Positions 8,818-46,199 of a stretch of 64,000 nt of DNA are shown here, piece after piece (the stretch's first letter is position 1; each line of letters begins with the position of its first letter). Location: the IMG/VR virus record IMGVR_UViG_3300007735_000883, positions 2,141 through 66,140 of that record; one strand, written 5' to 3'. The notes under the pieces were generated by a model, which was not told the DNA's origin, made no database searches, and was given only the letters and a program-made list of their open reading frames with translations. Source of the DNA: a virus (Duplodnaviria; Caudoviricetes). The position numbers and the translations under genes are program-made.

Positions 8818-9546
8818 ATGGGAACAACAATTTTATTTCCTGGAGACACAGACGCTAACGAAATACCAGTATTTCTTAATTTTCATTGGGGAGATTATAG
8901 CAAATACAATTCCGACAGAACTACCGATAAAATTATCGGGAAGGGTAATGTCATATCTGTTCCGTATCCCAGTAAATTCAATGTGATGAATGATGTTCCG
9001 TACACCAACAGTGCCAGCATATCTGGTGGTCCTTTAGACAATTTAAAGATGGCGTTTGATAACATCACATTTAATCTAGAAAAGGGGCTAAACTACTTTT
9101 TTGGAGGCGGTAGTAGTTTTACGTATGATAATATGGAATCGGTTTTAACGCCAGGTGCACGCCGAGTATACGACGTTACTATAGATTTAGTAGCAAAGTC
9201 ATTGATACAGTCTACCAACACAAAAACAATAGTAGACACGTTTCAAAAAAATGCTTTTTCTTCTTGGTCTGGTGGAAATCGGTTATTGTGGAAGCATCCT
9301 CCACTTTGGGTTATAACAGCTAGTACTACTGCATCGGGTAGTGGAACCGCTCCTGGCTGGGATCCTGTGGGTCTCCCGTGTGTTTTAAGAAAAGTTCAAA
9401 TAAACAGAAATCCTGTATTAGATATTCCGTTTAATTTACCTAATAACCATCCACTGGCAGTACGTTTAGATCTTACGTTTGTTGAGCTAGAGCCTGCAGT
9501 TAATACTACAGCAGGACTCAAGAACCGAGCTTGGACGTTTACTTAA
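8818..9546 (+). CDS. gp48: Baseplate tail-tube cap, gp48-like
   Basis: Divergent from gp4; R.Y...DL.AKS, HPPLW, PCVL..V.IN, P.AV.L.LTF.ELEP. Confidence 0.7.
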   Translation: MGTTILFPGDTDANEIPVFLNFHWGDYSKYNSDRTTDKIIGKGNVISVPYPSKFNVMNDVPYTNSASISGGPLDNLKMAFDNITFNLEKGLNYFFGGGSSFTYDNMESVLTPGARRVYDVTIDLVAKSLIQSTNTKTIVDTFQKNAFSSWSGGNRLLWKHPPLWVITASTTASGSGTAPGWDPVGLPCVLRKVQINRNPVLDIPFNLPNNHPLAVRLDLTFVELEPAVNTTAGLKNRAWTFT

Positions 9547-9565
9547 AGATAATATATACTTTACC

Positions 9566-10036
9566 ATGAGATTAACAAGTCCGTTTAGTACACAATTAAA
9601 TCTTGGTGGTTCAACCACAGATAATATTAAATCGGTTTATTCATTTAAAGACACATTTTTATACAGTTCTCCAGCAACTTTGGCTGGTGTGTCGATATCT
9701 GCGTTGAATAATTTGTCTGCTGGACTTACTTTTTTTGCAAAAGCAATGCGTGAACACCATAAGCAAAAAATGTTAAATTTTATAGATGGTTTTTTTGGTC
9801 CAAGTGGTCCCGGATACAATTACGGAGGACTCACATCAGATTCATATGAAAATTTAAATTTAAATACTTTAGGTTCTCAAACATCAAATATGGAATTGAC
9901 CACATTTAGAGCAATTTATAGATCATTAACGGATGGAATTACAAGTTCAGCAGAACATTTTCGTACTCTGTTTAACAGCAGAAATACTTATGTACCAAAT
10001 GGTTCTCAATCAACAATACCAATACAAATAATATAA
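9566..10036 (+). CDS. Hypothetical protein between gp48 and gp53
   Basis: 156-aa ORF tightly packed in the operon; no family recognised. Confidence 0.6.
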   Translation: MRLTSPFSTQLNLGGSTTDNIKSVYSFKDTFLYSSPATLAGVSISALNNLSAGLTFFAKAMREHHKQKMLNFIDGFFGPSGPGYNYGGLTSDSYENLNLNTLGSQTSNMELTTFRAIYRSLTDGITSSAEHFRTLFNSRNTYVPNGSQSTIPIQII

Positions 10037-10039
10037 TAT

Positions 10040-13000
10040 ATGTTTGAAAACTTTTCTAAAATTAATTATTATTTAAACGGTCAAACTTTAGAATTGACTG
10101 ATATTTTTAAATCTATAAAAATAGACACAACCAATACTTCTGCTGTCAGTACAACAACAAATACTAATCAATCACGACCGGATCAACTAGCAAAAAAATT
10201 ATACGATGATCCTAAATTATTTTGGATTAATTTTGCAATAAACGGTATTAAAAATCCATTTAGAGAATGGAATCAATCTAGCACATCTTTAGTTGAACAA
10301 AATTCTGAAGATTATGATACTAAAGTATTTCAATTTGGTAATACTAGCAAATATTTACCAACTGTTGAAACCTATTTTAATCCAGAACAGATTGATTCTT
10401 ATTCTGGAATTTCTTTGGCCAATATTCAACAGGACGATGTTATTATATTTGAAACCGGTTCAGGAGTATTTGAATTAAAAACATACGGTGCAGGCCAAAT
10501 CGAAGCACTAAATTCCTGCGGCTATCCTCATTTTGGCCAAACCGATATTCCTGATAATTTTTTAAACAGAAATAATATTATACAGATATCTTGTGGTAAA
10601 AATTTTACAGCATGTTTGGACGACACCGGATATATCTGGGCGTGGGGTCAGGATATAGGACTGGAATCTAGTGGATTTATTGTTAATGGTAGGCTGTACA
10701 ATTCACCACGTGGTGGTTATAAACATATTGATACCACACATAATAAAATTATTGCCGTTACTTATAATGGAGGATTAGAGTGTTTTGGTACGTGTGGTGA
10801 TTTTACGTATACTAGTGAAACCAGTGTTGCTAAAAGTGCGTGGATGGGCGGACTAACGTTGGCAGGCGTAGTTATTAAAACAGACAATACCGTAACTCCT
10901 TTAGGGCCTATTGTTTCTACCAATCCTACTCTTCAATATTGTTCTGATGTTTCTTGTGCTGACGATTATTGTTTAGGCGTAGTAACTGGTCCTGTCTCAA
11001 ACGGAACTGTTATTGGATTTGGTTCTACTGGTTATTTTTCTCAGATAGGCCAAAACACATTTTATTCTAAAGAACTTACCAAATTAGGTTCTGTTTCTAC
11101 AACAAATCCGGTTTATCCGTTTACAGACAACAATAATAAAATAATAAAAGATTACGAAAATGGCGTATTAGAAGTATCAATAAAAGATCTACAGCCGTTT
11201 ACATCTCCAAGCGGAAATTCAGATGAAGGATATAGAGCGTATTATAATCAAGTGTACGCATCACAAGATGAAAATAAAATATTAATAGGTATCACTGATT
11301 TTGACACGTACAGCAAAGAAGGATATATTATAAACAATCCCAAAACATTTGCTGGTGCTGGGTATGAACCATATGCTTCTAACACTTACGATTATACACA
11401 ATCATATGATAAAAATTTAAAACCAAATAGAAATTATAATTTATTTAAAGATTCTATTAGAAAATTTCCTGGAATCACTTCATTAACTGGTATAAATTTT
11501 TATCCAACAGCTGTTCCAGTATTAACCGGACCATTTAGATGGACTGTACTTCCTTCATTTAAATTTAATTATCTAAATGACAGTAGTTCTTATTTTAGTT
11601 CTTCAATAAATTATCGTAATTTATTTGGAATATCGTTTGTAAATCAAATCGGAACAGATATGTTTACTGATAACCTTGGTTTAAATACAAACTATTCAAA
11701 CAGCGGAATAACAGCAATTACTAATATTATAGATGGTGTAGGTCATTATATCGAAATAACTAATGACAAAAAAATAAAAATATATACAAAATATTCGGTT
11801 ATTGACGGTACAGAAAGTGATTATTCTCCCAGTAGGAGATACGTTAATGTTGCATCGTATAGAGATCAACCATCAGGTTTAACTGTTGATTTTCATAGTG
11901 ATTATTTTGAAACATCTTTTGGTTCAATTGATTATTGGGGAGAAAACACGTCTCGTGGTTTGTGGGTTTTAAAAGACAATGGTGTTCCTTATCTTATTCG
12001 TCCCGCAGAAGATCATATAAAAATACTAGCAGAACTAGAGCCAGAAACATGGGGATATGCGTATAACTTTAAACAAGACTGCCTTCCGCCCCCAGGTACT
12101 ACTTTCAAAAAAATAGACTTTGCTTCTTGCTCTGCATTTTGGGCGGCTGGTTTAAAAAATAACGGCGAAATTATGATATGGGGAGTAACATCGGATTTAA
12201 ATTGGTTGATGGGAATAACAAATCCACCATACACAATTCCCGGAATTACAGCAAAAGACATAACAATAAATGGCGATAATATTGTTGGTATAAGAAATAA
12301 TGGCACAATTTTTACGTTTGGTGGAACCACATTTGATGCGTTACACACATTTAATAATTTTTATGGAGGTGTAACAGTAACTAATGCGGTTAAAGTGGTT
12401 GGACCAAGCTTGAAACAGTATCTTGACCCCATGACTGTTTTAACGTCAGATAATAAACTTATTCATATGTTTCCGGATGCTAATTATTTTGGCCTGGAAA
12501 CAAATTTATGGAAAGCGTTTTTGGGAATTACTCTAGGTGGATTTGAATTAAAATACAATAAACCTATATCAGAACATCTAGATGATGTGTTCCGTGTTGA
12601 AAAATTAAATATTTCTTATATTTTAAATGCAGATACACAAATAAAAGATATTTCAGGAAACTCTCATAATCTTATAATAACAAAATTAGATGATACCAAA
12701 ATATTCACACAGCACGATCCTTCTGGAGTCTTTGGTACCATTCAATCGTGGTATGCTAGTGGAATAAAATTGCATACAGCCTTATACGGTCTGGATGTTA
12801 GTAAATATAAGAGAACAAAAGGAGAATATTGGCTAGACAATTATTTCTTAAATAAAGATACCGGTCATAAAGTTTTAATTAATGTTTTTGATATAAATTC
12901 TATAAATAATAAAACTGGTTATTCATCCGTACAAAATAGAAATGAATATCCGGTATTAGGTTTGGGTGTGTACAATGATATATTTACAGCTAATACTGAA

Positions 13001-13981
13001 TTGAATGCAAATTCAAATAACGGAATTCGCAGAATATCGCTTGAAGCAGAATGGAATCCTAATTTTTGGGCTACAAATGTAGACTATTTTTCACAAATTG
13101 ATAATGTTATAAATGGAGGATATACTCTTTCCGATTATATCACAACACAGTATGGTGTACTTTGGTTGTACGAAACATACTCTAAACAAAAAAAACCACT
13201 TATAATACATACTCCAAATTTAAATTATGGTTATCTTTCTGAATCAACACTGCAAACAAATAAAATAATTTTAGGTAATGGATTCATAATTAATTTACAT
13301 CCCAATAATAAATTAACATTTATATCTGGCGATAAACAACCATATAATATTGTGAAAGATTTTTCAAATCTTTCAACACTTTATACAGTTGATTTTAATA
13401 ATGAGGACGATTTTAAGTTTTGGGAAAACAGTATTGTTGAAAAAATAGCTATAGGAACAAATAGATTTTATACGTATAAACCAAGATATGTTGAAAATTC
13501 TGTTAATTATTGGGGATCTAAGGGAGAAAATATAGAACCTAAAGGATTAACCTACACACAAATAGATTGTTTTAGTACACACTGTTGTGGTATACGTCTA
13601 GACGGTAAAATTGAATGCTGGGGTTCAGATGATTCTGGTATCTGGGTGGAAATGCCCGATGGAACGGTTTTAAGTGGAGGATTAGCAGTTCCGCCTTCGC
13701 TGGGAGTTTGTAACAAAGTTTCTGTTGGTTATGACCACAGCTGTGCAGAAGACGTATCGGGAAATATAGTTTGTTGGGGTAATAATAATTACGGCCAAGT
13801 TACTGTTCCTTCGTATATAAACGATGGAACACCAAATCAAATTTTAGACTGTAGTAAATATTTTAGTGCAGTGCAAAAAACTGATGGAAGAATACTGATT
13901 TGGGGCAGAGCAATAACGGGCCCAGCAGAAATTATAGATTTAGGAAATTCTGTGCCCACAGAATTAACATTAGAGAGCTAA
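10040..13981 (+). CDS. gp53: gp53 N-terminal baseplate wedge domain fused to RCC1/BLIP-II-like repeats
   Basis: MFENF.KI.Y...TDIF...RPDQLA.KLY.DP.L.W....N.I.NP..EW (gp53), then ISCGKNFTACL...IWAWG and VSVGYDHSCA...CWGNN.YGQ repeats. Confidence 0.8.
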   Translation: MFENFSKINYYLNGQTLELTDIFKSIKIDTTNTSAVSTTTNTNQSRPDQLAKKLYDDPKLFWINFAINGIKNPFREWNQSSTSLVEQNSEDYDTKVFQFGNTSKYLPTVETYFNPEQIDSYSGISLANIQQDDVIIFETGSGVFELKTYGAGQIEALNSCGYPHFGQTDIPDNFLNRNNIIQISCGKNFTACLDDTGYIWAWGQDIGLESSGFIVNGRLYNSPRGGYKHIDTTHNKIIAVTYNGGLECFGTCGDFTYTSETSVAKSAWMGGLTLAGVVIKTDNTVTPLGPIVSTNPTLQYCSDVSCADDYCLGVVTGPVSNGTVIGFGSTGYFSQIGQNTFYSKELTKLGSVSTTNPVYPFTDNNNKIIKDYENGVLEVSIKDLQPFTSPSGNSDEGYRAYYNQVYASQDENKILIGITDFDTYSKEGYIINNPKTFAGAGYEPYASNTYDYTQSYDKNLKPNRNYNLFKDSIRKFPGITSLTGINFYPTAVPVLTGPFRWTVLPSFKFNYLNDSSSYFSSSINYRNLFGISFVNQIGTDMFTDNLGLNTNYSNSGITAITNIIDGVGHYIEITNDKKIKIYTKYSVIDGTESDYSPSRRYVNVASYRDQPSGLTVDFHSDYFETSFGSIDYWGENTSRGLWVLKDNGVPYLIRPAEDHIKILAELEPETWGYAYNFKQDCLPPPGTTFKKIDFASCSAFWAAGLKNNGEIMIWGVTSDLNWLMGITNPPYTIPGITAKDITINGDNIVGIRNNGTIFTFGGTTFDALHTFNNFYGGVTVTNAVKVVGPSLKQYLDPMTVLTSDNKLIHMFPDANYFGLETNLWKAFLGITLGGFELKYNKPISEHLDDVFRVEKLNISYILNADTQIKDISGNSHNLIITKLDDTKIFTQHDPSGVFGTIQSWYASGIKLHTALYGLDVSKYKRTKGEYWLDNYFLNKDTGHKVLINVFDINSINNKTGYSSVQNRNEYPVLGLGVYNDIFTANTELNANSNNGIRRISLEAEWNPNFWATNVDYFSQIDNVINGGYTLSDYITTQYGVLWLYETYSKQKKPLIIHTPNLNYGYLSESTLQTNKIILGNGFIINLHPNNKLTFISGDKQPYNIVKDFSNLSTLYTVDFNNEDDFKFWENSIVEKIAIGTNRFYTYKPRYVENSVNYWGSKGENIEPKGLTYTQIDCFSTHCCGIRLDGKIECWGSDDSGIWVEMPDGTVLSGGLAVPPSLGVCNKVSVGYDHSCAEDVSGNIVCWGNNNYGQVTVPSYINDGTPNQILDCSKYFSAVQKTDGRILIWGRAITGPAEIIDLGNSVPTELTLES

Positions 13982-13985
13982 TACC

Positions 13986-16900
13986 ATGAGCGGAGTATAC
14001 AAAGTATCTGTAGGATATAGTCACGGCCTCTTGATAAAAGACGGTAATTTATATGCTTGGGGTTATAATTATGACGGTCAATTAGGATTAGGAAATCCTG
14101 GCTTAACGTATCAACACAATCCAAAATTAGTATCTGGTTCTGGTAATTGGACTGATATTTCTGCTGGTTACGATCATTCGCTGGGAATATGTGGTGGATA
14201 TCTGTACTCGTGGGGTAGTAATTATTACGGACAATTAGGTTTAACGTATGTGCACGATGATCTTGCGACGCTTGGTTTAAGTGGTTATGGTCATTCTGCT
14301 CTGGGAAAATCAGCTGCCAAAGAATATTCACCCCAAAGAATAGGCGGGGGTTCTAATTGGTCTAAAATATCTGCAGGAAAAGAAATTTCTTTTGCCATAA
14401 GAAACGGATATCTTTACGGTTGGGGAAATTCAGGTGGTCCAAATTTTAATGATCGTTTAGGTGTTCGTTTCTCGGAAGATAATGGTCCATATACAAAGAT
14501 TAATGTTCTTACTCAGTTTGTTCCTGTTCCTATTAGAGTATCTACTTTAAGTACTTGGTCTGATATTTCAACAAATTGTGCTAATAATGATAACTCTATC
14601 GGAATTGCCGGTGGTAAATTGATGTCTTGGGGGTTGGAAGTGTTAGGAAAATTAGGAAATGGTGTTAATGCAACAACTAATAGATCACTAACTAAAATTA
14701 ACCCTTCTTTGTTGGTATCATATTTAAACAACGAGAATGGGTTTTTTAACTGTTTGTATGACCGCTCTTTTACCAATCCGGTTCCAACAAACACAACCTG
14801 GTCTGCTGTTTCTGCGGGGCGGTTACACGCACTAGGAATATCTGGCGGCGATCTGTACGCTTGGGGGAGTAATAATGGTGGTGCTTTGGGCGACGGAACT
14901 ACTTTAGATAGATATGTTCCAACTTTAATAGATTCTGATCCAACATACGATTGGGTTAAAGTTTCTGCAGGAGCAAACTACTCTCTAGGTTTGTTAGAAC
15001 CTGGGGGAGTAGGTTATTATGAACCGTGGGCATGGGGATCCAATTTAAACGGACAGCTAGGTGACGGAACTCTTAATAGTTCTCCTAGACCTAAACCAAT
15101 ATCAATCACAGAAACATATCAGGATATAAGTGCTGGTTATAATTATGCAGCCGGTATAGAATCTTCTTCAGGAACTTACAAAACATACGCGTGGGGATTT
15201 GATACATTTAAACCTGTATCGCAAGCTCCAAACGTTTTAACTAATCCTAACGATAAAATACCAGCACAATATAAAAGAGCAAACACAAAAGTAAAAAAAA
15301 TATCTGTTGGGTGGAATGATATTTACATTTTAGATAAAACAGGAAACTTAGATTATATTCCAATAAATGGAAATGATATAATTAGTCCAGCCGTATTACG
15401 AGAATTTAATTATACTTCTTATGGACCAACAAAAATATATCAACCTATAACAGATATAGCGGCAGGATTTAATACTGCTATAGTATCTAAAGCAGACAAT
15501 ACAATTAATATAGACGCTCGTGGATACAATTCACAGATACCCGTACCATCACCATATTATGCACAAACACCGGAATTGGAAAATATAACACAAAGAGCAT
15601 GGATTAAATTAAACAGAAGAGACACCATTACCGCTGTTTTCTGTGGTGGTAGTAATTACGCAATAGTGTTTGGTGATGGTACTGTAGAAACTTGGGGTAA
15701 ATATAAAGACTGGAGTAACTATCAACCAATACACATTAAATGGAAACAGGTAGTTAGTGGCGGTAACCATATTGTCATATTAAATACAAACAATCAGGTA
15801 TATTGTTTTGGAGATAATACGTATAGTCAATGTAATGTACCGTCTGGTTTAACTGGAATCAAATCTGTTTTTGCTACAGCAACAGCTTCTGGAGCATTAT
15901 TAGAAAACGGAGATGTTGTTTATTGGGGTGCATGGGATCGTTTTGACGGAACAGATCAATTAAGTTTATACTCCGTATTACAGACATCATATCCACATAC
16001 AACCGCTGCTCTTCCACTAAACAGAAAATATAAACATAACCTTATAGGTTACACTTTTGATGGAGATTGGGGAGAAACGTTATACAAGAATTCTATAAAA
16101 ACAAAACTCCAAGAATACTATACCCAAACAGGAAGTTATCCTAAAAAATTAATCCTTAATATACAAGACGGAACAAACAATCCTCTACGGTGGTTTAATG
16201 AGCCTGCAACCATTAAATACTTGGGTTTTACTTTAAATGCTTCAGGCATTTCTTCTGCAAACGATGGAGTAACGTATCAAAACTTAGTTTCAAACAATTA
16301 TTCTGTTGCCCCCACACGTTACGAAGATTTTACAAAAGTTTTACAAACAATCACGGATTTTTATAGTCTCGGTTACACTTTGGCAAAACAAGCAATCTAC
16401 GAACTGTCCGGCGATAAAAATACAACAGCGGTAGGATTTAATACAGGGCAGCTATTACCTGATTATACGTTCTTAGGATTTAGTGCCGCCAGCAGTAGCT
16501 ATACACTAAATTATAAAAACAGTTGGTTAACCGGAAACACTCTTGTTAATTACAAAGAATATTCTAACGATACTGAATGGGCTCCGTATATTATACAAGG
16601 ACCAGATTCGTATCTGCCTATTTCTGGTTTTGATGTATCAAATAAATCGTATAAACCGTATTCTGGTACTACTGCTACCAATAATTATCATGTTAATTCT
16701 GTTGGTATTACCAGTGCAGTTTATACTGCGTACTACAACAGATGGAAAGAATTCTTAAATAGTGTAGATTTTGATTTTGTTATCGATAATAATATAAGTA
16801 AATTTATTCTGCCAGATGAAACGTCTAATACTCCAATACTGTGGGCTAAAACCAAACAAATACTAAAAGATTACGAAACAAGTACAGGAACGATACTAAA

Positions 16901-18158
16901 TAAAAACTTACTCACAAATTTTGCCAACTATTCAGATTCTAACATAGGAACAACTCTTGGCGTTGTGGATAAAGGTCCCGTTCTTATACAGGGTGCTACG
17001 GGTATACGTGTAAATCTGGACCAATTTAAATCTTCTGTCACTACTTCAAAAGCTGCACCGTACAACTACAATACTGTAATTAATAATTTAAATATTTTTG
17101 ATCTGGGAATACTGGCAATTCTGGGCTCAACTCTAGAGCAAAGAATTTTAGATCAGTGGTATTACTATGGAATACGTGGTGGTACTTTTAATTGGTCTAA
17201 TAAAACAACCGATCCTGGGTTTACGTATATTGATTGGTCTACCATACAAACAGAACTGGTAAATGAGACGTATTCTGTATTTGGTTCGTCTAAACCTAAT
17301 GTTAACAAGTTTGTTAGTTTATTAAATTATTTTAATGCGTTAAATTTATTACCCAATCAACAGTTTGATTTTTATAATCTTAAGGATGTAATAAAAATTA
17401 AATCCGGTAAAGATCACAGCATACTTTTAAATAAATTAGGTAAACTGTATTTCTTAGGTGCAACTTCTGATAATAGACAGAATCTGCCAGACGGAGAATA
17501 CACGGATATTTCTGCAGGCGATCTACACTCTGCTGCAATAAGCACTACTGGTGCTTTATTTACCGCAGGAAAACTTATAACAGATTCTGGAGGATGTTCC
17601 GGTTCTACTCTAACTGTAGACCTTACTCCTATTTCTGGTGTGTTTGATACTGTAGAATCTGGAGGTAACCATCTAGCACTGTTTGAAACCGGGCAAAATA
17701 AAAAATACTACGGAACTGTTGATCGTGTTGACGAGATATTCAAGAGAATATATGTTAAAAACTACTCTGCTGCAGACGAAACCAATATATCTTTTGGTGA
17801 TCCGTCTGGAACAAACGTCACAATAATACGAGACGGAACCGTAATAAAAAATATACAACATAAATTATTAAGTATAGACTCATACGTTTACACTGTACAG
17901 AATATTATTAATGGTTCTGGTGTTGTGCAAGACGTTTCTGCTAATAATGGAGCTGTTTGGAAAACGTATTTTATAAATTCATATAAAAATGCAGAAAATA
18001 ATCCATATTTGGTCACCCCATTTAAAGTACAAATAGAGACTATACAGGCACAAGACATTAAGTATCTAAATAAAGAGGTATTGTACACATTTGAAAACAA
18101 GTTTAAAGACCTAATAAAAACTGAAAATAAAATTGATATAAAAATATCTGACTTATGA
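13986..18158 (+). CDS. RCC1-repeat beta-propeller protein with a gp53-like C-terminus
   Basis: Many ISAG.xHSL...LY.WG.N..GQLG repeats; ends VTPF...IKYLNKEVL..F...FKDLI, like gp53 C-termini. Confidence 0.8.
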   Translation: MSGVYKVSVGYSHGLLIKDGNLYAWGYNYDGQLGLGNPGLTYQHNPKLVSGSGNWTDISAGYDHSLGICGGYLYSWGSNYYGQLGLTYVHDDLATLGLSGYGHSALGKSAAKEYSPQRIGGGSNWSKISAGKEISFAIRNGYLYGWGNSGGPNFNDRLGVRFSEDNGPYTKINVLTQFVPVPIRVSTLSTWSDISTNCANNDNSIGIAGGKLMSWGLEVLGKLGNGVNATTNRSLTKINPSLLVSYLNNENGFFNCLYDRSFTNPVPTNTTWSAVSAGRLHALGISGGDLYAWGSNNGGALGDGTTLDRYVPTLIDSDPTYDWVKVSAGANYSLGLLEPGGVGYYEPWAWGSNLNGQLGDGTLNSSPRPKPISITETYQDISAGYNYAAGIESSSGTYKTYAWGFDTFKPVSQAPNVLTNPNDKIPAQYKRANTKVKKISVGWNDIYILDKTGNLDYIPINGNDIISPAVLREFNYTSYGPTKIYQPITDIAAGFNTAIVSKADNTINIDARGYNSQIPVPSPYYAQTPELENITQRAWIKLNRRDTITAVFCGGSNYAIVFGDGTVETWGKYKDWSNYQPIHIKWKQVVSGGNHIVILNTNNQVYCFGDNTYSQCNVPSGLTGIKSVFATATASGALLENGDVVYWGAWDRFDGTDQLSLYSVLQTSYPHTTAALPLNRKYKHNLIGYTFDGDWGETLYKNSIKTKLQEYYTQTGSYPKKLILNIQDGTNNPLRWFNEPATIKYLGFTLNASGISSANDGVTYQNLVSNNYSVAPTRYEDFTKVLQTITDFYSLGYTLAKQAIYELSGDKNTTAVGFNTGQLLPDYTFLGFSAASSSYTLNYKNSWLTGNTLVNYKEYSNDTEWAPYIIQGPDSYLPISGFDVSNKSYKPYSGTTATNNYHVNSVGITSAVYTAYYNRWKEFLNSVDFDFVIDNNISKFILPDETSNTPILWAKTKQILKDYETSTGTILNKNLLTNFANYSDSNIGTTLGVVDKGPVLIQGATGIRVNLDQFKSSVTTSKAAPYNYNTVINNLNIFDLGILAILGSTLEQRILDQWYYYGIRGGTFNWSNKTTDPGFTYIDWSTIQTELVNETYSVFGSSKPNVNKFVSLLNYFNALNLLPNQQFDFYNLKDVIKIKSGKDHSILLNKLGKLYFLGATSDNRQNLPDGEYTDISAGDLHSAAISTTGALFTAGKLITDSGGCSGSTLTVDLTPISGVFDTVESGGNHLALFETGQNKKYYGTVDRVDEIFKRIYVKNYSAADETNISFGDPSGTNVTIIRDGTVIKNIQHKLLSIDSYVYTVQNIINGSGVVQDVSANNGAVWKTYFINSYKNAENNPYLVTPFKVQIETIQAQDIKYLNKEVLYTFENKFKDLIKTENKIDIKISDL

Positions 18159-20152
18159 CAACACAAATAACTGTTCCAAATATTGAAATTAAAGAAATCA
18201 CTCTGATCAACAGTGATCCTAATATTGGTTCACAGATGGTTGCTTTTACAGTATTTCCAAGAGACAAAAACGAACCTGTAATATTTGATTCTTTAATTTT
18301 AGATGAAGATATGTTTGCAGAATCTGTGACCGGAACTTTGTATTTTTATGATCCTGCGTTTATAGTAGAACAATTAAATTTTACTTCGTATGATATTGTG
18401 CAGATACAGTATTCAACTGTTGGTGGTATAACTAAAAAATGTAAATTTAAAATTGTAGAAATTGCATCAGAAGCTAATACTGTTTCTAAACAAATTCTTG
18501 GACCGTTTGGAAACACTATTCCTGTTGCTATTAAATTTACTTCAGATCAATTAATCTATAAGAATTTTGATACCATGTTATTGAAATCTTTTATAGGAAG
18601 AATTTCAAACGATTCTAAAACGTCTGCTCCATATACCAGTCAAGTTCCAGGACTAGAGGCGTGTGGTAAAATAGACAGTCCAGGATTTGTTCAGTACGTT
18701 TTTGAAGAGTTTGGATTTGGTAAAAATCAAGGCGATGAAGTTGCTAAAAAATTAGAAGCAGACGCCACATTTAATGACGTTTGGTTTAAAATAAATCCTA
18801 GTCATTATCCGTGGAGTAAAATTGGTGTACCAGCAAAAATTGGTCAGATGATGAATTACGTTTGCGAGTACGCATGTTATCTTAAAAATCCAAATGCAGT
18901 AAACTTTTTCTTCTGGGAAGATTTGGATAAGTTTAATTTTAGGTGTGTAGAGTCTCTGTTAGACAAACAACCAAAAGCAACATATACTCCATCATTAAAT
19001 GAAAACGACACTGATGCTATAGTGGATCTACAGATTATTACAGAGACTCCAGTATCTAAACTGGTTGATAATGGAGCATTTAGTGGTGAATATATACGAG
19101 TTAAACCCGATTGGATAAACCCGTATAAATTTGTTGTGGATACTGCAGAATCGTTAAAACGAACACAGGTTGTTTACGACTACTATACCGATAAAGGATT
19201 TAAAAAAATATCAACGTATCCGCCTGTAGACAGAAAAGACGTGTCGTTGGTGTATTCTCCTAATAGAATTTCAGATTCTAATTACGGCTATTTTCAAGAC
19301 GCATACGGTCAGGGAAATAGACCTTGGTGGAATTATTGGGATTCTTCGTATAAGCACTTTGAAGGAGAAAAAATAGGAGGAGTAACGTCCGAAGTAGAAC
19401 GAATAGAAGGTAACTATTGGCAAGCTCAGTTTGATTTTTGTGAACTTCCTGGTTCGTGTTTAAAGAAAATTTACGAAAAAATTAAATGGCCTAGATCGTC
19501 CGCCAGAGCAGCGTACTCTGCAATGAAACGAGCAGACACAAAATGGAAATTTTATAGACAGACCATTTTGGGCGAAAGAAACCAACCTACAAGTTTTTAT
19601 GCACTGTTATTGAGTGCAACAAACATATACGATAATGGTGCTGGCGGTATATATGAATATTATTTTGAAGAAGTAGAATTCTGGCCTAAACGAACAAATG
19701 GATTTAGAAGTGTTAAATCGGTTCAACGAGTTATTTCTGACCCAAACTATCCGTTTACCATAGTCTCTGTTCCTTGGGGGATTAAAGGAAACGCCTATAA
19801 TTTGAACGAACTTTTAAATAGCGGATTACCCAGATCAAAAGAAGATGATGCATCTATAAAAACAGCACTAATATCGCCAGGAGCGTCCAGCAAAGTAACA
19901 AGCGATGGCGTAGACGGTATAATAATGCAACCTGTTGGTGGATTTAGAGTTAGATCTACTCCAGAAGATGGAACGCCCAAAGACGTATACGTTGGTAGAG
20001 TAGTAAAAATTGATGTAGTTAGTTCAAAAATGGTAGACATGTTAACACCTGCCACTAGTTTTCCGTGCGGATTCCCTATAAAACAAGAAGTTGGGCCGAT
20101 TTATATGTTTGATGTAGAAAATTCAGGAGTTTGCTCTACTACAACACCATAA
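18155..20152 (+). CDS. Baseplate hub (gp27-like), N-terminal part
   Basis: IKEI.L, EDMF...VTG.L..YD, NFFFWEDL..FNF..VESLL typical of T4-like hub proteins; follows gp53. Confidence 0.6.
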   Translation: MTTQITVPNIEIKEITLINSDPNIGSQMVAFTVFPRDKNEPVIFDSLILDEDMFAESVTGTLYFYDPAFIVEQLNFTSYDIVQIQYSTVGGITKKCKFKIVEIASEANTVSKQILGPFGNTIPVAIKFTSDQLIYKNFDTMLLKSFIGRISNDSKTSAPYTSQVPGLEACGKIDSPGFVQYVFEEFGFGKNQGDEVAKKLEADATFNDVWFKINPSHYPWSKIGVPAKIGQMMNYVCEYACYLKNPNAVNFFFWEDLDKFNFRCVESLLDKQPKATYTPSLNENDTDAIVDLQIITETPVSKLVDNGAFSGEYIRVKPDWINPYKFVVDTAESLKRTQVVYDYYTDKGFKKISTYPPVDRKDVSLVYSPNRISDSNYGYFQDAYGQGNRPWWNYWDSSYKHFEGEKIGGVTSEVERIEGNYWQAQFDFCELPGSCLKKIYEKIKWPRSSARAAYSAMKRADTKWKFYRQTILGERNQPTSFYALLLSATNIYDNGAGGIYEYYFEEVEFWPKRTNGFRSVKSVQRVISDPNYPFTIVSVPWGIKGNAYNLNELLNSGLPRSKEDDASIKTALISPGASSKVTSDGVDGIIMQPVGGFRVRSTPEDGTPKDVYVGRVVKIDVVSSKMVDMLTPATSFPCGFPIKQEVGPIYMFDVENSGVCSTTTP

Positions 20153-20160
20153 GGATTTAT

Positions 20161-20997
20161 ATGAGCCAAGATCAAATAAACACTTCTAATTTTAATGCAG
20201 ACGACTACAGTGGATTTACTCCTCATAAATTTAGTATTAGTTCCAGAGAACACAGTAAATTTGGCCCGTCTTTAAATCCTGATTATTTTATATCCAATCC
20301 TAAACTAGTTCCGTATGCTACCACCCCCCCAGCACATCTCTCAAAATATAGACCAAATGAATCAGAACCCAACGAAGACCAGTTGCTGTGCGCTAAAAAT
20401 GCAGCAACAGAGTGTCCTGCAATTAAAACAGAACTGGGTTCTGAGTGGTTAGGTATAGATTACAGCGATCCTAATGCTGCTTATAATTGTTTTTGTTCTG
20501 ATGTTAGAGATAGACCGGATGCTTCATGGTGGTCCACAAAAGGACATATAAGTGAAGGAGAAGCTGGAAGACTGTCTAAATTACCCTCAGAAATACCAGT
20601 AGATCGATATGTTCCTGCCTCGTACCCTTCAGGAAATTGTGGTACACAATTTGAAAAATATGTAGAATATTCTAAAACAAATGCAACATTTTGGAATACT
20701 CCTCCAAAAACGCCACTGTATAGAAGAGCTCAAATGGCCCTACTCATGTACAATCGTATACGAATTTTAGTCCATGGAGATTTTAATATTAAACCGGGAG
20801 ATCTAATAAACATAGCGTATAGTGTAAACATGCAAAATAACACACAAATTAAAAAATCTCGCCACGACGGTAAATGGATGGTGTATAAAGTTCAAAGAGT
20901 TTTAACCGCAGTAAAACATTCCATGTTTTTATATTTAATGCGAGACGGATCAGAGGTTGATCCAAAAGCATACAGAACAGTTGTATTAGAAAATTAA
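20161..20997 (+). CDS. Baseplate hub (gp27-like), C-terminal part
   Basis: I.I.V.GD..I.PGD.I.I...DGKWMV.KV.....H.M.L.L.RDG hub C-terminal motif. Start set to ATG 20161, which follows AAGGA. Confidence 0.55.
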   Translation: MSQDQINTSNFNADDYSGFTPHKFSISSREHSKFGPSLNPDYFISNPKLVPYATTPPAHLSKYRPNESEPNEDQLLCAKNAATECPAIKTELGSEWLGIDYSDPNAAYNCFCSDVRDRPDASWWSTKGHISEGEAGRLSKLPSEIPVDRYVPASYPSGNCGTQFEKYVEYSKTNATFWNTPPKTPLYRRAQMALLMYNRIRILVHGDFNIKPGDLINIAYSVNMQNNTQIKKSRHDGKWMVYKVQRVLTAVKHSMFLYLMRDGSEVDPKAYRTVVLEN

Positions 20998-29184: not shown

Positions 29185-30288
29185 ATGCCTTCTTGCCGAT
29201 CCAGTAGCAACCAAAACACACGCGTATTTGCACCTCACGTTATTTTTCAACAAGACACTACGCGTCTGGCAATAACTCTTACTAGTGGTCAGGGGTATAC
29301 TTTAGAAGGAATAACTGCTGGTGACGTTATTCGCTACGATCCTATAAACGGAAGTTATAAAAAGTCTTTAGCAAACACAGAAATAAACGCAGAAGTTTTA
29401 GGTGTTGTTGAAAGCGGTATAACTGCGCCGTATACTGTTGTTATATACGGGTCGATTAAATATCCACAAAGTCGTTTAAATCAGATCGTGAGTGGTGCGG
29501 ATGGTGGAATAGACGTTTTATTTTTAGACGATCAAGTAAGTGGTGGTCTAACAGGAAGTATAGATTTAACAACAGGAGTAAAGATAGTTAAACCTGTTAT
29601 GCAGGTTGCTCCACACGGAGTATATAATGGTGTTGTAACAAATTATATTGGTTATAAAACCGGTAGTGCGCCTTCATCGGGGCCTGGGTTTGCACCACCC
29701 GATGGTGGAATTATTATGGGACCTAAAGGTTTAGACAACGAATACTGGTTAGATTTATCATTAGATCAAACAATATCTGCCAGCGATTATCCTACAGTTT
29801 ATCAGACATATGGAACCGATTACGGTCCGTATCAAGAACTGGTGACTGTTAGTAGTGGTACAGTTACTAGTGGTCTAATCGGAAAACAAGCGTATCAACT
29901 GATTAATAATATAAAAAATTATGTGGGAGTTGTAACTGCTGTAGACATTATAGGAACAATTACCGTAGAGAAGGCTTCAGGAACACAATTATACGATACA
30001 TCAAAAACTTTATACGTTGATAAAACTCCTTTTGGCATTTCTAGTACCTCTGTTTCTTCGTTCTTTGTACCAAAAGTAAATATAAACGCAGAACAAAACG
30101 GAGAAACACTTACAGCGTATTTAAAGCTGTTTGATGATCCCAGAACAGTAACAATACCAAACGAATTATCGGTCAACCAATTAACAGCGGAATCTACTTT
30201 AACTGTAAATGGTGTAGATGTTGGTGCTAAATTAGCGGAACTGGAAGTAAAAATAAATCTACTGAACGCCAGGGTTAGTGCATTCTAA
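29185..30288 (+). CDS. Virion structural protein, paralogous to the N-half of 26757..29171
   Basis: GIT.GDVIR...SLA....AEVLGVV...GGLT...KPV shared with the upstream gene; C-terminal coiled coil. Confidence 0.6.
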   Translation: MPSCRSSSNQNTRVFAPHVIFQQDTTRLAITLTSGQGYTLEGITAGDVIRYDPINGSYKKSLANTEINAEVLGVVESGITAPYTVVIYGSIKYPQSRLNQIVSGADGGIDVLFLDDQVSGGLTGSIDLTTGVKIVKPVMQVAPHGVYNGVVTNYIGYKTGSAPSSGPGFAPPDGGIIMGPKGLDNEYWLDLSLDQTISASDYPTVYQTYGTDYGPYQELVTVSSGTVTSGLIGKQAYQLINNIKNYVGVVTAVDIIGTITVEKASGTQLYDTSKTLYVDKTPFGISSTSVSSFFVPKVNINAEQNGETLTAYLKLFDDPRTVTIPNELSVNQLTAESTLTVNGVDVGAKLAELEVKINLLNARVSAF

Positions 30289-33077
30289 TGAATATTGTAG
30301 GATTTAGTTCTGTTAAACAACTAGGCAATGCTAGTATTAGTATTGGTAATACTGGCCCTACTGGTCCTATAGGCAATACTGGCCCCATAGGATTAGGTTT
30401 AACAGGAAATACCGGATCGGGTATTGTTGGAATAACTTTAATTGATCGTTATTTAGTTACTGCGTTTTCTAATGGAACTACGTATTCAACACCGAATAAA
30501 ATATACGGAGCTACTGGCGGATTTACTTACATAGTAGATTTTTTAAATGCCGGTTCTGGTATTTCTATAGGTTATGGAATTACCGGTTCTAATGGGTTGA
30601 TTTTACGACCAATACGTATAGTAAATAATACAGCCAATAATTTATCTGTAACTTCTACATCTAGTGACGTGACCGTAAATCTGGCTACTGTAGGTGGTGC
30701 TGGGGTTACGCTTGTTCCTAACTCTACTTTTACTGACGCGTATCTTTTAAAATTTAAAAATAAAAAATTAAAAAGAATTGCGGCCACTAAAGGAGTAACT
30801 TCTGGAGCATCTTCATATTATGGTTTAGATTTTATAAATTCAAATTTATTTGAAAGAGTACGTGGAATGGGTTGGACTGGTTCTACTGGTTCAGTTAATT
30901 GTGTTATTTCTGGTGTCGGTGTTACATGTGATATTGATCCGTTTGAAAAAGAATATGATGAATTAATGTACGGATTGACTTCTAAAATATTTGTTGGTGA
31001 TTTTAATGGCCGAACTGCTAGTATCAATATTGCTACATGCCCAACAGACGGAAACGCTTACGGTTTTGAAATGTACATTCAGAACGCAAAAAACCCAATA
31101 AATTTAAATAATAGATTTACGTCTACAAGCCCCATAAAATGGCCATTAAACAGAACTCCGTGTTTTAGTTCTGATGGGGCAACTTGCGATATCAGAGTAT
31201 CTTTTTTTGGTATTCAAGGAATTTGGTATGCTACCGCAAAACATATTGGTGTAAATTCTGTATGTAATGATGAAGGACTATTTTATAGAACTTGTACATC
31301 TTCAGAAGGATTTGATGTTTTTATACCGGATCAACCACAAATTATAGGAGCATGCTGTAAACCTGATGGTACTTGTACAGAAACTAGTGCAACAATTTGT
31401 ACTGGTTATTTTCATGGAATAGGAACTACATGTGGTTCTGTTTATAATTCTATATGCAATAAACCTGGTGCGTGTTGTGTGGTTCCTCCGGGACAACTAA
31501 ATTTTTGTTTTGAATTAACATCTAGTGAATGTTTGGGTATATCTTTTTCGCATTTTGCAGGAAACAGCACTAATTGTTCTGGAGTAAATTGTGGCCAAAT
31601 TACTGAAAGACTAGGAGCTTGTTGTGACGGTTTAGGTGGCTGTTCTCAAACCACAAAAACTGATTGTGTTAATAATTCTGGTTATTTTCAAGGAGTAGGG
31701 TCTGAATGTGTTAGTAAATATACTGGGTTATCCATATGTTCTGGTGGAACTGGTCCGTGTTGTATAAATGGTGTGTGTTCCACTAATTCTGGTTCAGAAT
31801 GTCTTGCAAATAATGGCTATTATCTGGGAACTGGAAGAAGCTGTTTTGAATTTGTTTGTCCTGCTTCAGTTTCTTGTCTTGGCTATGTAAACGGAATTCC
31901 TGTCCGTAGTGGTCAAGAATATGGTGGTGGTATAATTGTTGGTAGATTTGAACCAGGAAAAAGTAAAATATTAGGAGCAAGCAGTCTATTTAATCCCACA
32001 AATATTGATACTATAGGTGGCACTACAGTATTTGATTGTGAATTTTATACTTCATTTTTAGACCATACAGCATACGGCATAACAAAAGATTGTGGATTTA
32101 ATAATGAAGCGTATATTATTATAGTGTACCCAGAAGATGTTGTTATAAATGGAAACAAAACATTTTTATGGGGAATTACAGGTTCTTCTTGGGGTCCGTT
32201 GTTAGACAGTGGAGGAAATTATTCTGATTTTAGTTTATTATCAGATCCCTCTGATCCCAATTCAACACCTATACAGTATTACGATACTCATTTACGTTAT
32301 AGCGAAGGATTTTGGTCTACACAATCCACCGAACCTTTACAAAATTTAATTGTAAAAACATTTCCAACTTGCTCTAGTTCTGTTGTGTATGGTAATGGTG
32401 GTGTTGCCAGAGTATTTTCTAAATCACCATATGGACTTCACGGATCCTGGCATCATTCTTGGGGCTTGTATAATACAGTAAGAGCAATATCAGCAAACAA
32501 TACGTATGTAAAAAATGTATCATTAGCTGGTGTATTTAAGTTTAATGAATTTGAATACACTAGTGGTTATAACGCATTTAAAGCTGTAAGAACCATACCG
32601 GACGGACTAACTTCTCCGGTTCAAGGAATTACAGCAAATTCTGCCAGTTTATCTGGTTGGTATCTACCAAGTCATGACGAACTTGCGTTTATTGCATCTA
32701 GCACTGCTAACATGTACGGATTTAATATTAACACCCATTTGATGACTGTTTATGATGGTGAACCACTAAATGGAATTTATTGGTCTTCAACAGGAACTTT
32801 TGATTACGATAAAGACGAAGGCGTTTACGATACCACTACACCAAATCAAAAACCAAAACCAGGTTCTGTAGCAATTGCTATGGACATGGATGTAAATGGT
32901 AGTTCTTATAAAGCATATAAATCAGAAAGAACCAAAAAATATAAAGTTAGACCTATTCGTATGTTGCGTTGCGATGCAACCATACCACAAAATAGATACT
33001 TATGGTTGATTCCTAGTGTATACGAATCAAAAATAAATCAAAGAAATATTGATACACTTAATATAGAAGCAATATGA
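30288..33077 (+). CDS. Cys-rich fibre-like protein with GxTG collagen-like N-terminus, GACC repeats and DUF1566/Lcl-like C-terminus
   Basis: GNTGPTGPIGNTG; four G[AP]CC modules; GQEYGGGI, GWYLPSHDEL, YWSST, VRPIR. Confidence 0.7.
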   Translation: MNIVGFSSVKQLGNASISIGNTGPTGPIGNTGPIGLGLTGNTGSGIVGITLIDRYLVTAFSNGTTYSTPNKIYGATGGFTYIVDFLNAGSGISIGYGITGSNGLILRPIRIVNNTANNLSVTSTSSDVTVNLATVGGAGVTLVPNSTFTDAYLLKFKNKKLKRIAATKGVTSGASSYYGLDFINSNLFERVRGMGWTGSTGSVNCVISGVGVTCDIDPFEKEYDELMYGLTSKIFVGDFNGRTASINIATCPTDGNAYGFEMYIQNAKNPINLNNRFTSTSPIKWPLNRTPCFSSDGATCDIRVSFFGIQGIWYATAKHIGVNSVCNDEGLFYRTCTSSEGFDVFIPDQPQIIGACCKPDGTCTETSATICTGYFHGIGTTCGSVYNSICNKPGACCVVPPGQLNFCFELTSSECLGISFSHFAGNSTNCSGVNCGQITERLGACCDGLGGCSQTTKTDCVNNSGYFQGVGSECVSKYTGLSICSGGTGPCCINGVCSTNSGSECLANNGYYLGTGRSCFEFVCPASVSCLGYVNGIPVRSGQEYGGGIIVGRFEPGKSKILGASSLFNPTNIDTIGGTTVFDCEFYTSFLDHTAYGITKDCGFNNEAYIIIVYPEDVVINGNKTFLWGITGSSWGPLLDSGGNYSDFSLLSDPSDPNSTPIQYYDTHLRYSEGFWSTQSTEPLQNLIVKTFPTCSSSVVYGNGGVARVFSKSPYGLHGSWHHSWGLYNTVRAISANNTYVKNVSLAGVFKFNEFEYTSGYNAFKAVRTIPDGLTSPVQGITANSASLSGWYLPSHDELAFIASSTANMYGFNINTHLMTVYDGEPLNGIYWSSTGTFDYDKDEGVYDTTTPNQKPKPGSVAIAMDMDVNGSSYKAYKSERTKKYKVRPIRMLRCDATIPQNRYLWLIPSVYESKINQRNIDTLNIEAI

Positions 33078-45608: not shown

Positions 45609-46199
45609 ATGGCCGGAAATCACTCCATTAACGACTTCATACAAAACTTTAAAGGTGGAACACGTCTAAACAGATTTACTGTGGAAGGAAATGTTGGGCC
45701 AGGAACCAGCACCACAAACAGATTAACTCCGTTTCACGTAAGAAGTGCCAGCATACCAGAAGCTACTATTGGTCCCGTTTCTGTTAATTATAGAGGAAGA
45801 ACCGTTACTTATTCTGGTGATCGTGTGTATCAGCCATGGCAGATTACTGTTTTAGATGATCATGCAGGCGGCCAAAGCGATCCTCAGAATTTATTTAAAA
45901 TGTTCCACGATTGGCACGACCAAATTAATTCACATACCGGAAATATTACCACATTTGAAACCGGTATTGATTTAAGCAGTTTATGGAGTGACGTTTGGAC
46001 TGTAAAACAATATCAGTTAAATTGCGATAGTGCTCTGTACGGTCGTGCATTTAAACTGTTTAATGTGTGGCCCATAGGAATCGGGCCTCTAGTTCTAGAT
46101 ATGAGCCAAGATAATGTTTTAGCTTCATTTGCAGTAACACTGGTGTATTCACACTATACATATGAAGGTGCTCCGTATAGCACTCAAAGCGGTATCTGA
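45609..46199 (+). CDS. gp19: Tail tube protein gp19
   Basis: GG.R.NRF.V, A..P....G...V.YRGR.....GDR....W.ITV..D, WP..I....L. Confidence 0.93.
   Translation: MAGNHSINDFIQNFKGGTRLNRFTVEGNVGPGTSTTNRLTPFHVRSASIPEATIGPVSVNYRGRTVTYSGDRVYQPWQITVLDDHAGGQSDPQNLFKMFHDWHDQINSHTGNITTFETGIDLSSLWSDVWTVKQYQLNCDSALYGRAFKLFNVWPIGIGPLVLDMSQDNVLASFAVTLVYSHYTYEGAPYSTQSGI

Follow-up and report, generated by a model that had tools for sequence, protein, structure and literature searches.

A probable two-piece gp53 gene, enlarged by a propeller insertion, in an uncultured freshwater T4-like phage

The window analysed here, 64,000 nucleotides of the IMG/VR virus record IMGVR_UViG_3300007735_000883 (positions 2,141 to 66,140 of that record), carries two adjacent open reading frames (ORFs), ORF1 and ORF2, which lie in different frames with 4 nt between them and which are probably the two pieces of a single, enlarged gene for the baseplate wedge protein gp53 (BW4) of an uncultured freshwater T4-like phage. 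We propose that this arrangement would have arisen in steps. In the wider clade, gp53 is one chain of ~600 aa, made up of an N-terminal domain, a seven-bladed propeller (hereafter the scaffold propeller) and a ~155-aa C-terminal domain whose end resembles that of gp53; in the lineage of the window, one inter-blade loop would have taken up ~2,116 aa, comprising RCC1 propellers and two regions without a recognised fold; and a stop within this insertion, with a new start 2-4 nt further on, would have given two proteins, of 1313 and 1390 aa. Lastly, the N-terminal domain would be whole on ORF1, and the scaffold propeller and the β-rich domain adjacent to it would need ORF1 aa ~92-335 together with ORF2 aa ~1130-1390. 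Sequence comparison documents the first three of these steps and the conservation of the break; the joining of the ends in trans is a prediction from modelling.

The gp53 character of the beginning of ORF1 is clear. Residues 2-92 score 33.3 bits with the Pfam family Phage_gp53 (PF11246), for which the cut-off is 21 (E = 4.9e-8), and cover no more than profile positions 3-101 out of 200; the same domain also matches PHROG 232, baseplate wedge subunit (E = 1.3e-13), and aa 1-83 align by hhalign to a compact 167-aa gp53 with a probability of 98.5% (E = 3.6e-15). An earlier note on this DNA, made from the letters alone, had placed the two ORFs and a gp53 domain at the start of the first, and the PF11246 and PHROG 232 matches agree with it.

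What ties the far end of ORF2 to this domain is a set of relatives in which both ends sit on one chain. When viral contigs were scanned with the N-terminal domain and a family alignment as queries, 18 distinct loci other than the window were obtained, the L023 and L024 entries being repeats of the L003 and L002 contigs. Giant split forms number three, namely the window, L002 (1357 + 1400 aa) and L003 (1349 + 1391 aa); nine loci hold a single ORF of 585-609 aa starting with the gp53 N-terminal domain (L004, L017-L022, L025, L026), four hold compact 167-aa gp53 genes (L005-L008), and two are of other kinds (L027, 55 aa and a poor match; L028, 347 aa). P0002, the 606-aa protein encoded in L004, can be aligned with ORF1 aa 1-331 at 46% identity (E = 2e-92) and, 12 residues further on, with ORF2 aa 1135-1390 at 45% identity (E = 8e-57). 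A protein database supplied seven more full-length members (38-83% identical, coverage 100%); in this single-chain family (P0002, P0004-P0009, P0011) the only source label is 'hypothetical protein', on P0009. An attempt to find relatives through the C-terminal 158 aa of ORF2, by a pattern scan of viral contigs, found none, and those described here came through the N-terminal domain.

Gene order leads to the same place. In the eight single-chain loci with downstream sequence, the next gene is an ORF of 665-796 aa, the homology of which to the tail protein of the window is confirmed by sequence in L017 only (the L004 contig ends after the gene); one gene followed by a tail-protein-sized ORF implies that ORF1 and ORF2 together occupy the slot of one gene. 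Taken with the alignments, this supports treating the N-terminal end of ORF1 and the C-terminal end of ORF2 as halves of one protein. Could the two ORFs nevertheless encode independent proteins, ORF1 acting alone as a gp53-anchored adhesin and ORF2 being a separate, fibre-like RCC1 protein that attaches elsewhere? The C-terminal domain is not significantly gp53-like, and a 154-aa entry, P0016, consists of that domain alone and could be free-standing or a truncated gene call. However, 16 single-chain members (nine loci and seven proteins) have both ends on one chain with one propeller between them, and the scaffold propeller of the window is divided between its ORFs, such that neither chain holds a whole copy; we regard independence as unlikely.

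The part between the two ends resembles known propellers. The AlphaFold2 model of P0002, built from nine sequences, has a mean predicted local distance difference test score (pLDDT) of 67, rising to 80-90 over aa ~170-450, and its best solved matches in Foldseek are BLIP-II 3qhy_B and 1jtd_B (E = 5e-16, TMt 0.74-0.77), within a wider set of BLIP-II, RCC1 and UVR8 propellers at E values of 5e-16 to 1e-13 and TMt of 0.53-0.77; these whole-model matches are dominated by the propeller and do not probe the gp53 core. Both ORFs of the window match RCC1 families (PF25390, E = 1.5e-92, PF00415, E = 1.2e-42, and PF13540, E = 5.1e-33, in ORF2; PF13540, E = 4.3e-16, in ORF1), and 11 of the 11 RCC1_2 matches in the 66-kb record fall within them. 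Together with the BLIP-II matches of P0002, they confirm the RCC1/BLIP-II-like repeats that had been noticed between the ends. According to the model, the single-chain form is a gp53 N-terminal domain, an inserted seven-bladed BLIP-II/RCC1-like propeller and a C-terminal domain; a closed scaffold propeller in the window would follow from its 45-46% identity to P0002 and from the two-chain model described below.

The position of the insertion can be read from the same comparison. The N-terminal part of the scaffold propeller in ORF1, for which the blade count is an estimate from the strands of the P0002 model, aligns to P0002 up to aa 338, and RCC1 blades resume in ORF2 at aa 1138 and 1175. The insertion point falls between model strands 331-336 and 351-356, an inter-blade connection which, by our own count on the model, would be roughly the loop between blades 4 and 5. 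The extra block of the window, ORF1 aa 332-1313 plus ORF2 aa 1-1134 (about 2,116 aa), is missing from the ~600-aa relatives. At the same alignment position a different insert, of ~310 aa, is found in P0010 (916 aa), and a similar one, as judged by eye, in P0013 (920 aa); this one propeller loop has taken at least three payloads, namely none, ~310 aa and ~2,116 aa. The inserts of these two metagenome relatives (P0010 aa ~345-655, P0013 aa ~350-700) contain the motifs '...SAQHF...' and 'GDSSSP', reminiscent of a chymotrypsin-like serine protease; Pfam gave no match on the P0010 insert. Elsewhere in the family, P0014 (1014 aa) has an extra RCC1 block directly after the gp53 N-terminal domain and not in the propeller loop, which makes the position after that domain a second insertion-tolerant site.

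Within the insertion, RCC1 sequence covers ORF1 aa 1170-1292, and an iterated blade hidden Markov model places the ORF2 repeats at starts of aa 7, 58, 128, 201, 275, 326 and 381, with PF25390 covering aa 4-334. These seven repeats, over ORF2 aa 7-413, are probably a complete propeller of their own. We had entertained the idea that the break cuts one propeller at the junction of ORF1 and ORF2 and dropped it; as ORF2 starts with seven RCC1 repeats, the cut probably lies between propellers of the insertion.

The break itself occupies one aligned position in all three split contigs (the window, L002 and L003, of ~70% protein identity), with spacers of TAA-TACC-ATG, TAA-AA-ATG and TAA-AAAC-ATG, and ORF2 frame offsets of +1, +2 and +1, respectively. 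Such differences in spacer and frame argue both against an error and against a conserved recoding signal. It might still be supposed that a single polypeptide of ~2,700 aa is made, the stop at 13979 being an assembly or sequencing error or being bypassed by programmed frameshifting: RCC1-type sequence reaches the stop and continues immediately behind the ATG, the frame of ORF2 is open for only four codons before the ATG, and a +1 shift at AGC-TAA is formally possible. However, the break is kept in all three contigs, the shift required is not the same in each and no slippery motif is common to them, and in every case the ATG of ORF2 follows the stop by 2-4 nt, an arrangement usual for translational coupling. 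In addition, contigs from other sequencing runs bridge the break without an indel: one of 6094 nt from run X3 (another sample; record 11), covering 10520-16613 with nine differences and no gaps, and one of 415 nt from run X6 (another study; record 18), covering 13783-14197 with one difference and no gaps. The contigs of four runs show no indels across the stretch. As for a fused form elsewhere, none of the best 120 of 1483 matches among proteins of at least 2434 aa carries PF11246, these being generic giant RCC1 proteins, which is weak evidence of absence. A single continuous polypeptide is, in our estimation, very improbable.

The split is real and old, and is probably functional. In a tree of the scaffold parts, rooted by midpoint only, the three split forms make up one clade (100/100) that is sister to L004, L017 and L018, with the other six single-chain forms across the midpoint root. 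The simplest reading of these sequences would be one origin of the split form from a ~600-aa ancestor.

Would the separated ends find each other again? In a two-chain complex prediction with ORF1 aa 1-340 and ORF2 aa 1130-1390 (a 12-row alignment for each, and three controls), the median score was 0.90 and the best control scored 0.00, which also tells against two independent proteins; 58 of 80 solved complexes attained the score mark used, as did 2 of 110 mismatched pairs, counts that are only roughly valid here, with our own alignments having been used. Contacts agree between runs to at least 88%, and the pLDDT of the partner is 83 or more. The model contains 461-488 contacts, in which ORF1 aa 302-336 and 159-192 touch the blades of ORF2, and ORF1 interface residues also lie at 92-109 and 128-153; aa 92-153 touch ORF2 aa ~1224-1300, the contacts of lowest error being those of ORF1 96-99 with ORF2 1253-1256 and 1293-1297. 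A pass of this kind indicates that the pieces are predicted to belong to one fold, and does not imply binding in the cell. The earlier note had left two options for gp53, assembly from two chains or a cassette that excises or swaps, and the first of these is the better in light of the single-chain relatives, the conserved break and the complex model. We go further, with an even chance of being right, in positing that the two giant chains are obligate partners, the propeller and the adjoining gp53 β-domain each being rebuilt in trans as a natural case of split-propeller complementation.

How far the C-terminal domain is itself gp53-like deserves closer attention. In a profile-profile comparison of its last 70 columns, the last ~34 residues align to positions 158-191 of the gp53 of RB51 (T4-type), that is, to the terminal strand and helix, with a score of 20.4 against 10.75 +/- 2.0 for column shuffles (maximum 17.3; 0 of 200 reach it). 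The P0002 model ends in strand, helix and strand, and Pfam matches only the N-terminal half of compact 167-aa gp53 too. In our reading, remote homology of the last ~35 residues to gp53 would be likely. The 'gp53-like C-terminus' described earlier finds weak confirmation, over about 34 residues, in the RB51 alignment (above its shuffles, at an hhalign probability of 6%), and none in family models or tblastn. Scanning 1.84 billion representatives with the C-terminal domain gave 17 matches. Most of those examined are gp53-N/RCC1 proteins with the domain at their C-terminus, at least one match (P0024) is a repeat protein without relation to them, and a few short entries may be fragments. One of the short entries, P0016, starts at a methionine; it may come from a truncated gene call, or the gene may be split differently there.

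Several points weigh against taking the pair as one enlarged gp53. Pfam, PHROGs and tblastn against phages gave no gp53 match for the ORF2 C-terminus, and the hhalign probability of the C-terminal domain against gp53 is 2-6% (6% for the RB51 alignment). Both gp53 parts are poor in the AlphaFold2 model of P0002, at pLDDT 31-76, which leaves the gp53 fold of the reassembled core unsupported; within aa 1-70 (pLDDT 45-73), helices at aa 47-55 and 58-67 are compatible with LysM at low confidence. The complex score is of limited weight for the halves of a split gene in which RCC1 is well represented among solved structures, and the alignments behind it include the single-chain relatives. The direction of change, insertion and not deletion, rests on parsimony with a midpoint root only. 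Lastly, the record is 37% complete by the CheckV estimate, and the rest of the genome might hold another gp53.

A quite different proposal had been built on an 11-mer, TTTGAAACCGG, present in three copies (the third at 45954), of which the first two are in phase with their ORFs. The sequence bears this out, and the arithmetic that went with it is right: joining the two copies removes 7234 bp and leaves 136 + 158 = 294 aa. On this basis the earlier note envisaged a ~7.2-kb receptor-binding cassette bounded by the in-frame repeats, which would excise or swap by recombination and leave a 294-aa gp53, and held that breakpoints far from the encoded FETG in relatives without the RCC1 block would speak against it. 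The repeat does exist, in phase in both ORFs, and the block between the copies does hold hypervariable stretches. However, in-phase repeats of this length are to be expected. ORF1 and ORF2 have 23 11-mer positions in common, 17 of them in phase and including a 15-mer, whilst codon-shuffled ORF pairs have 18.8 +/- 5.7 (13.1 in phase); 300 of 300 shuffles hold at least one in-phase common 11-mer, and 74 of 300 reach 23. The repeat is thus no signal, and the caveat attached to the cassette, that a third copy might mean chance, was well placed; a word-specific shuffle (expected 0.05) tests a single word picked after the fact.

The relatives point the same way. That third copy lies in an unrelated gene, and the DNA repeat is kept in neither L002, which reads TTTGAAACTGG and TTTGAAATTGG at the two sites, nor L003, which reads TTTGAAACCGG and TTCGAGACCGG. 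The sequence that holds each FETG site is still present in the single-chain relatives, L004 reading FEKG and LETG there. The breakpoints in relatives are away from FETG, the true borders of the insertion being at ~ORF1 aa 331 and ~ORF2 aa 1135, about 195 and 98 codons from the repeats at aa 137 and 1233; at these borders nothing longer than 9 nt is common, a length reached by 119 of 300 shuffles. The junction check proposed with the cassette, a joint between 10458 and 17693, found none in the contigs of four sequencing runs, where rare variants can be dropped. Contig joints at 10592>18130, 11725>13437 (X6) and 11792>12893 (X11) were each seen in one contig, with 20-21 letters on one side, and were not counted. 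An intact gp53 of 294 aa has no place amongst the forms seen either, which are the compact one of 167 aa and the propeller-bearing one of about 600 aa. We give the excisable cassette next to no chance; the 11-bp repeat plays no part in the two-piece gp53 proposed here. What remains of the idea that a propeller was grafted into a wedge protein is the BLIP-II/RCC1-like propeller in the gp53 slot, without the graft borders at FETG and with a putative role in host binding.

Conservation is unevenly spread along the two chains. When the window ORFs are compared with L002 and L003 in stretches, the scaffold (ORF1 aa 1-400 and ORF2 aa 1201-1300) is 66-79% identical, and ORF2 aa 701-1000 is 60-81% identical; ORF1 aa 401-1100 falls to 16-41%, except for aa 701-800 at 48-58%, and ORF2 aa 101-300 to 34-47%. 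A fixed anchor with fast-changing outer parts would fit a host-binding decoration. The nature of the inner segments is less accessible: Pfam returned only RCC1 and noise on them, an AlphaFold2 model of ORF2 aa 660-1134 from three sequences gave a mean pLDDT of 29.7 and no readable fold, and nothing usable came from ESM Atlas feature searches with ORF2 aa 670-1134 or ORF1 aa 335-700.

Table 1. Features of the two-piece gp53 gene and its surroundings, in positions of the window.
Feature	Coordinates	Strand	Description
ORF1	10040..13981	+	1313 aa: gp53 N-terminal domain, first part of scaffold propeller, first half of large insertion
ORF2	13986..18158	+	1390 aa: second half of insertion, last part of scaffold propeller, C-terminal domain
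gp53 (BW4, putatively LysM-type) N-terminal domain	10040..10315	+	ORF1 aa 1-92
β segments	10313..10498	+	ORF1 aa 92-153 (FETG = aa 137-140); pack against ORF2 C-terminal domain in complex model
Scaffold BLIP-II/RCC1-like propeller, N-terminal part	10499..11035	+	ORF1 aa ~154-332; about 4 blades
Insertion, part 1	11036..13981	+	ORF1 aa 333-1313: hypervariable, no known family, then RCC1 blades at C-terminal end
Stop/restart junction	13979..13988	+	TAA-TACC-ATG; ORF2 in +1 frame
Seven RCC1 repeats	13986..15224	+	ORF2 aa 7-413
Second RCC1-like region	15246..16025	+	ORF2 aa 421-680; PF25390 E = 1.2e-20, RCC1_2 E = 2.7e-15
Conserved region without recognised fold	16026..17387	+	ORF2 aa 681-1134; no credible Pfam family
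Scaffold propeller, C-terminal part	17388..17690	+	ORF2 aa 1135-1235; about 3 blades; alignment with P0002 from aa 351 on
C-terminal domain	17691..18158	+	ORF2 aa 1236-1390; end is a gp53-like strand-helix
11-mer TTTGAAACCGG, copy 1	10448..10458	+	Codon 137 of ORF1; chance repeat
11-mer TTTGAAACCGG, copy 2	17682..17692	+	Codon 1233 of ORF2; chance repeat
gp48-like baseplate tail tube cap	8818..9546	+	PHROG 230, E = 4.6e-8; upstream synteny anchor
Small ORF	9566..10036	+	156 aa; no family match; between gp48-like gene and ORF1
Downstream tail protein	18155..20152	+	665 aa; PHROG 350; downstream synteny anchor
Major head protein			PHROG 138, E = 2e-146; ~53% identical to cyanomyophage gp23
Large terminase and gp6-like wedge subunit			Present in structural module

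The surroundings are those of a T4-like structural module (Table 1), within which the one PF11246 match of the record lies between the gp48-like gene and the tail protein. The tail protein is 50% identical, over its full length, to the ORF directly after the 602-aa gp53 in L017; the order gp48, gp53, tail protein is also found in Vibrio phage D528, and this position in the baseplate cluster, with the gp48 side and the hub/tail protein side, is kept in all related loci examined. The G+C content of the region is 28-39% and shows no step at the borders of the insertion, and thus gives no sign of a recent foreign origin. River, sediment, reservoir and lake metagenomes contain DNA identical or nearly identical to that of the window; among the matches listed, part of it is found in 20 runs from 12 studies, and at least half of the sampled words in nine. 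In run X11, 9 of 30 bins are uncovered, and several runs have small shares only, from which we draw no conclusion.

The small ORF ahead of ORF1 is 36% identical (E = 1e-11) to a 138-aa ORF of L003 (3733-4149), and L002 has an ORF of 164 aa (1812-2306) at the corresponding place, its sequence not having been compared; the single-chain loci checked (L004, L017 and L019) have no counterpart. This ORF of 138-164 aa goes together with the giant split form and might have a helper role in assembly. The thought that gp48 was split as well, into ORFs of 242 and 156 aa equivalent to the 386-aa ORF of L005, found no similarity and was dropped. Downstream, the ORFs at 18155-20152 and 20131-20997 (both +) each match PHROG 350, over profile positions 154-297 and 316-432 of 436; this family is spread over two adjacent, overlapping ORFs, and the size pair recurs in related loci. 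Further into the structural module, ORFs at 34193-38269 (+, 1358 aa) and 30288-33077 (+, 929 aa) have no PHROG match at E <= 1e-5.

If the two ORFs are indeed one gp53-derived unit, the pair would, by analogy with T4 gp53, sit at gp53's place in the baseplate in six copies, with perhaps ~300 kDa of propellers per wedge, the hypervariable parts of which might bind host surface structures. Should the obligate partnership and the six copies both hold, some 1.8 MDa of propellers would be tethered to the baseplate by its innermost small wedge protein, and the hypervariable part of either gene could be exchanged by recombination with the anchor left undisturbed. More broadly, a whole clade of uncultured phages appears to use gp53 as the carrier of a BLIP-II/RCC1-like propeller, and the window lineage adds an unusual gene fission, in which two domains are divided at once and yet the division is kept in lineages only ~70% identical. 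Such a split gp53 would be a natural test case for the folding of a β-propeller in trans and for the mass that can be borne at the wedge position. It also offers a testable lead on the role of the many unexplained RCC1-like proteins of phages, and suggests that the two ORFs be labelled as components of a single gp53-derived unit in place of 'regulator of chromosome condensation'.

Variation in gp53 has been recorded before, in other forms. Published accounts present BW4 as a LysM-fold protein, small and universally conserved, to which various systems have joined other baseplate proteins or domains (PMC10811340, PMC10966104); passages of the same two papers place gp53/BW4 near the hub and wedge, and a host-binding role is not mentioned in those passages. 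RCC1-like propellers are frequent in predicted structures from phages and giant viruses, two examples being the 'Tail tubular protein Gp11' from an uncultured phage and a phage Noxifer virion structural protein, and phage phAPEC6 is reported, in a passage of its description, to have eleven RCC1-like proteins with no known role (PMC7247149). Among the papers that full-text searches listed, no title or abstract opening describes a gp53-RCC1 arrangement of this kind. The annotated gp53 genes of the Synechococcus phages ACG-2014d (L010) and S-RIM14 (L014) are 933 and 969 nt long (about 310-322 aa), in comparison with which the gp53 of RB51, at 196 aa, is shorter; they seem to reach beyond the part that aligns to compact gp53, indicating that the length of gp53 is variable in other marine T4-like phages too.

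Set beside T4 gp53/BW4 (PF11246; PDB 5IV5, 5HX2, 9F4A), the window form is alike in its N-terminal ~90 aa, which exceed the Pfam cut-off, in its slot after a gp48-like gene and before a tail/hub protein, and through its compact 167-aa relatives, which match the solved chains 9f4a_AL (E = 1.2e-12) and 5hx2_F (E = 3.4e-10). The part described as universally conserved is whole on ORF1. In contrast, T4 gp53 and its like take 167-212 aa in one gene and the window form about 2,700 aa over two, with an inserted propeller, a second insertion nested within it, and a C-terminal half that the family models do not recognise. Whilst the published BW4 fusions, as presented in the passages on them, are end-to-end joins to baseplate proteins (PMC10811340, PMC10966104), the window has an insertion of a binding-type propeller. 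The ~600-aa gp53-RCC1 proteins are the nearest kin, with the same slot, N-terminal domain, scaffold propeller and C-terminal domain, but they are one chain, without the ~2,116-aa block and without the stop and restart. Finally, the likeness to BLIP-II, RCC1 and UVR8, as seen in the Foldseek matches of P0002 and the Pfam matches of both ORFs, implies neither a β-lactamase-inhibitor nor a nucleotide-exchange role; unlike those propellers, the one in the window is inserted in a wedge protein, is itself interrupted, and is divided over two polypeptides.

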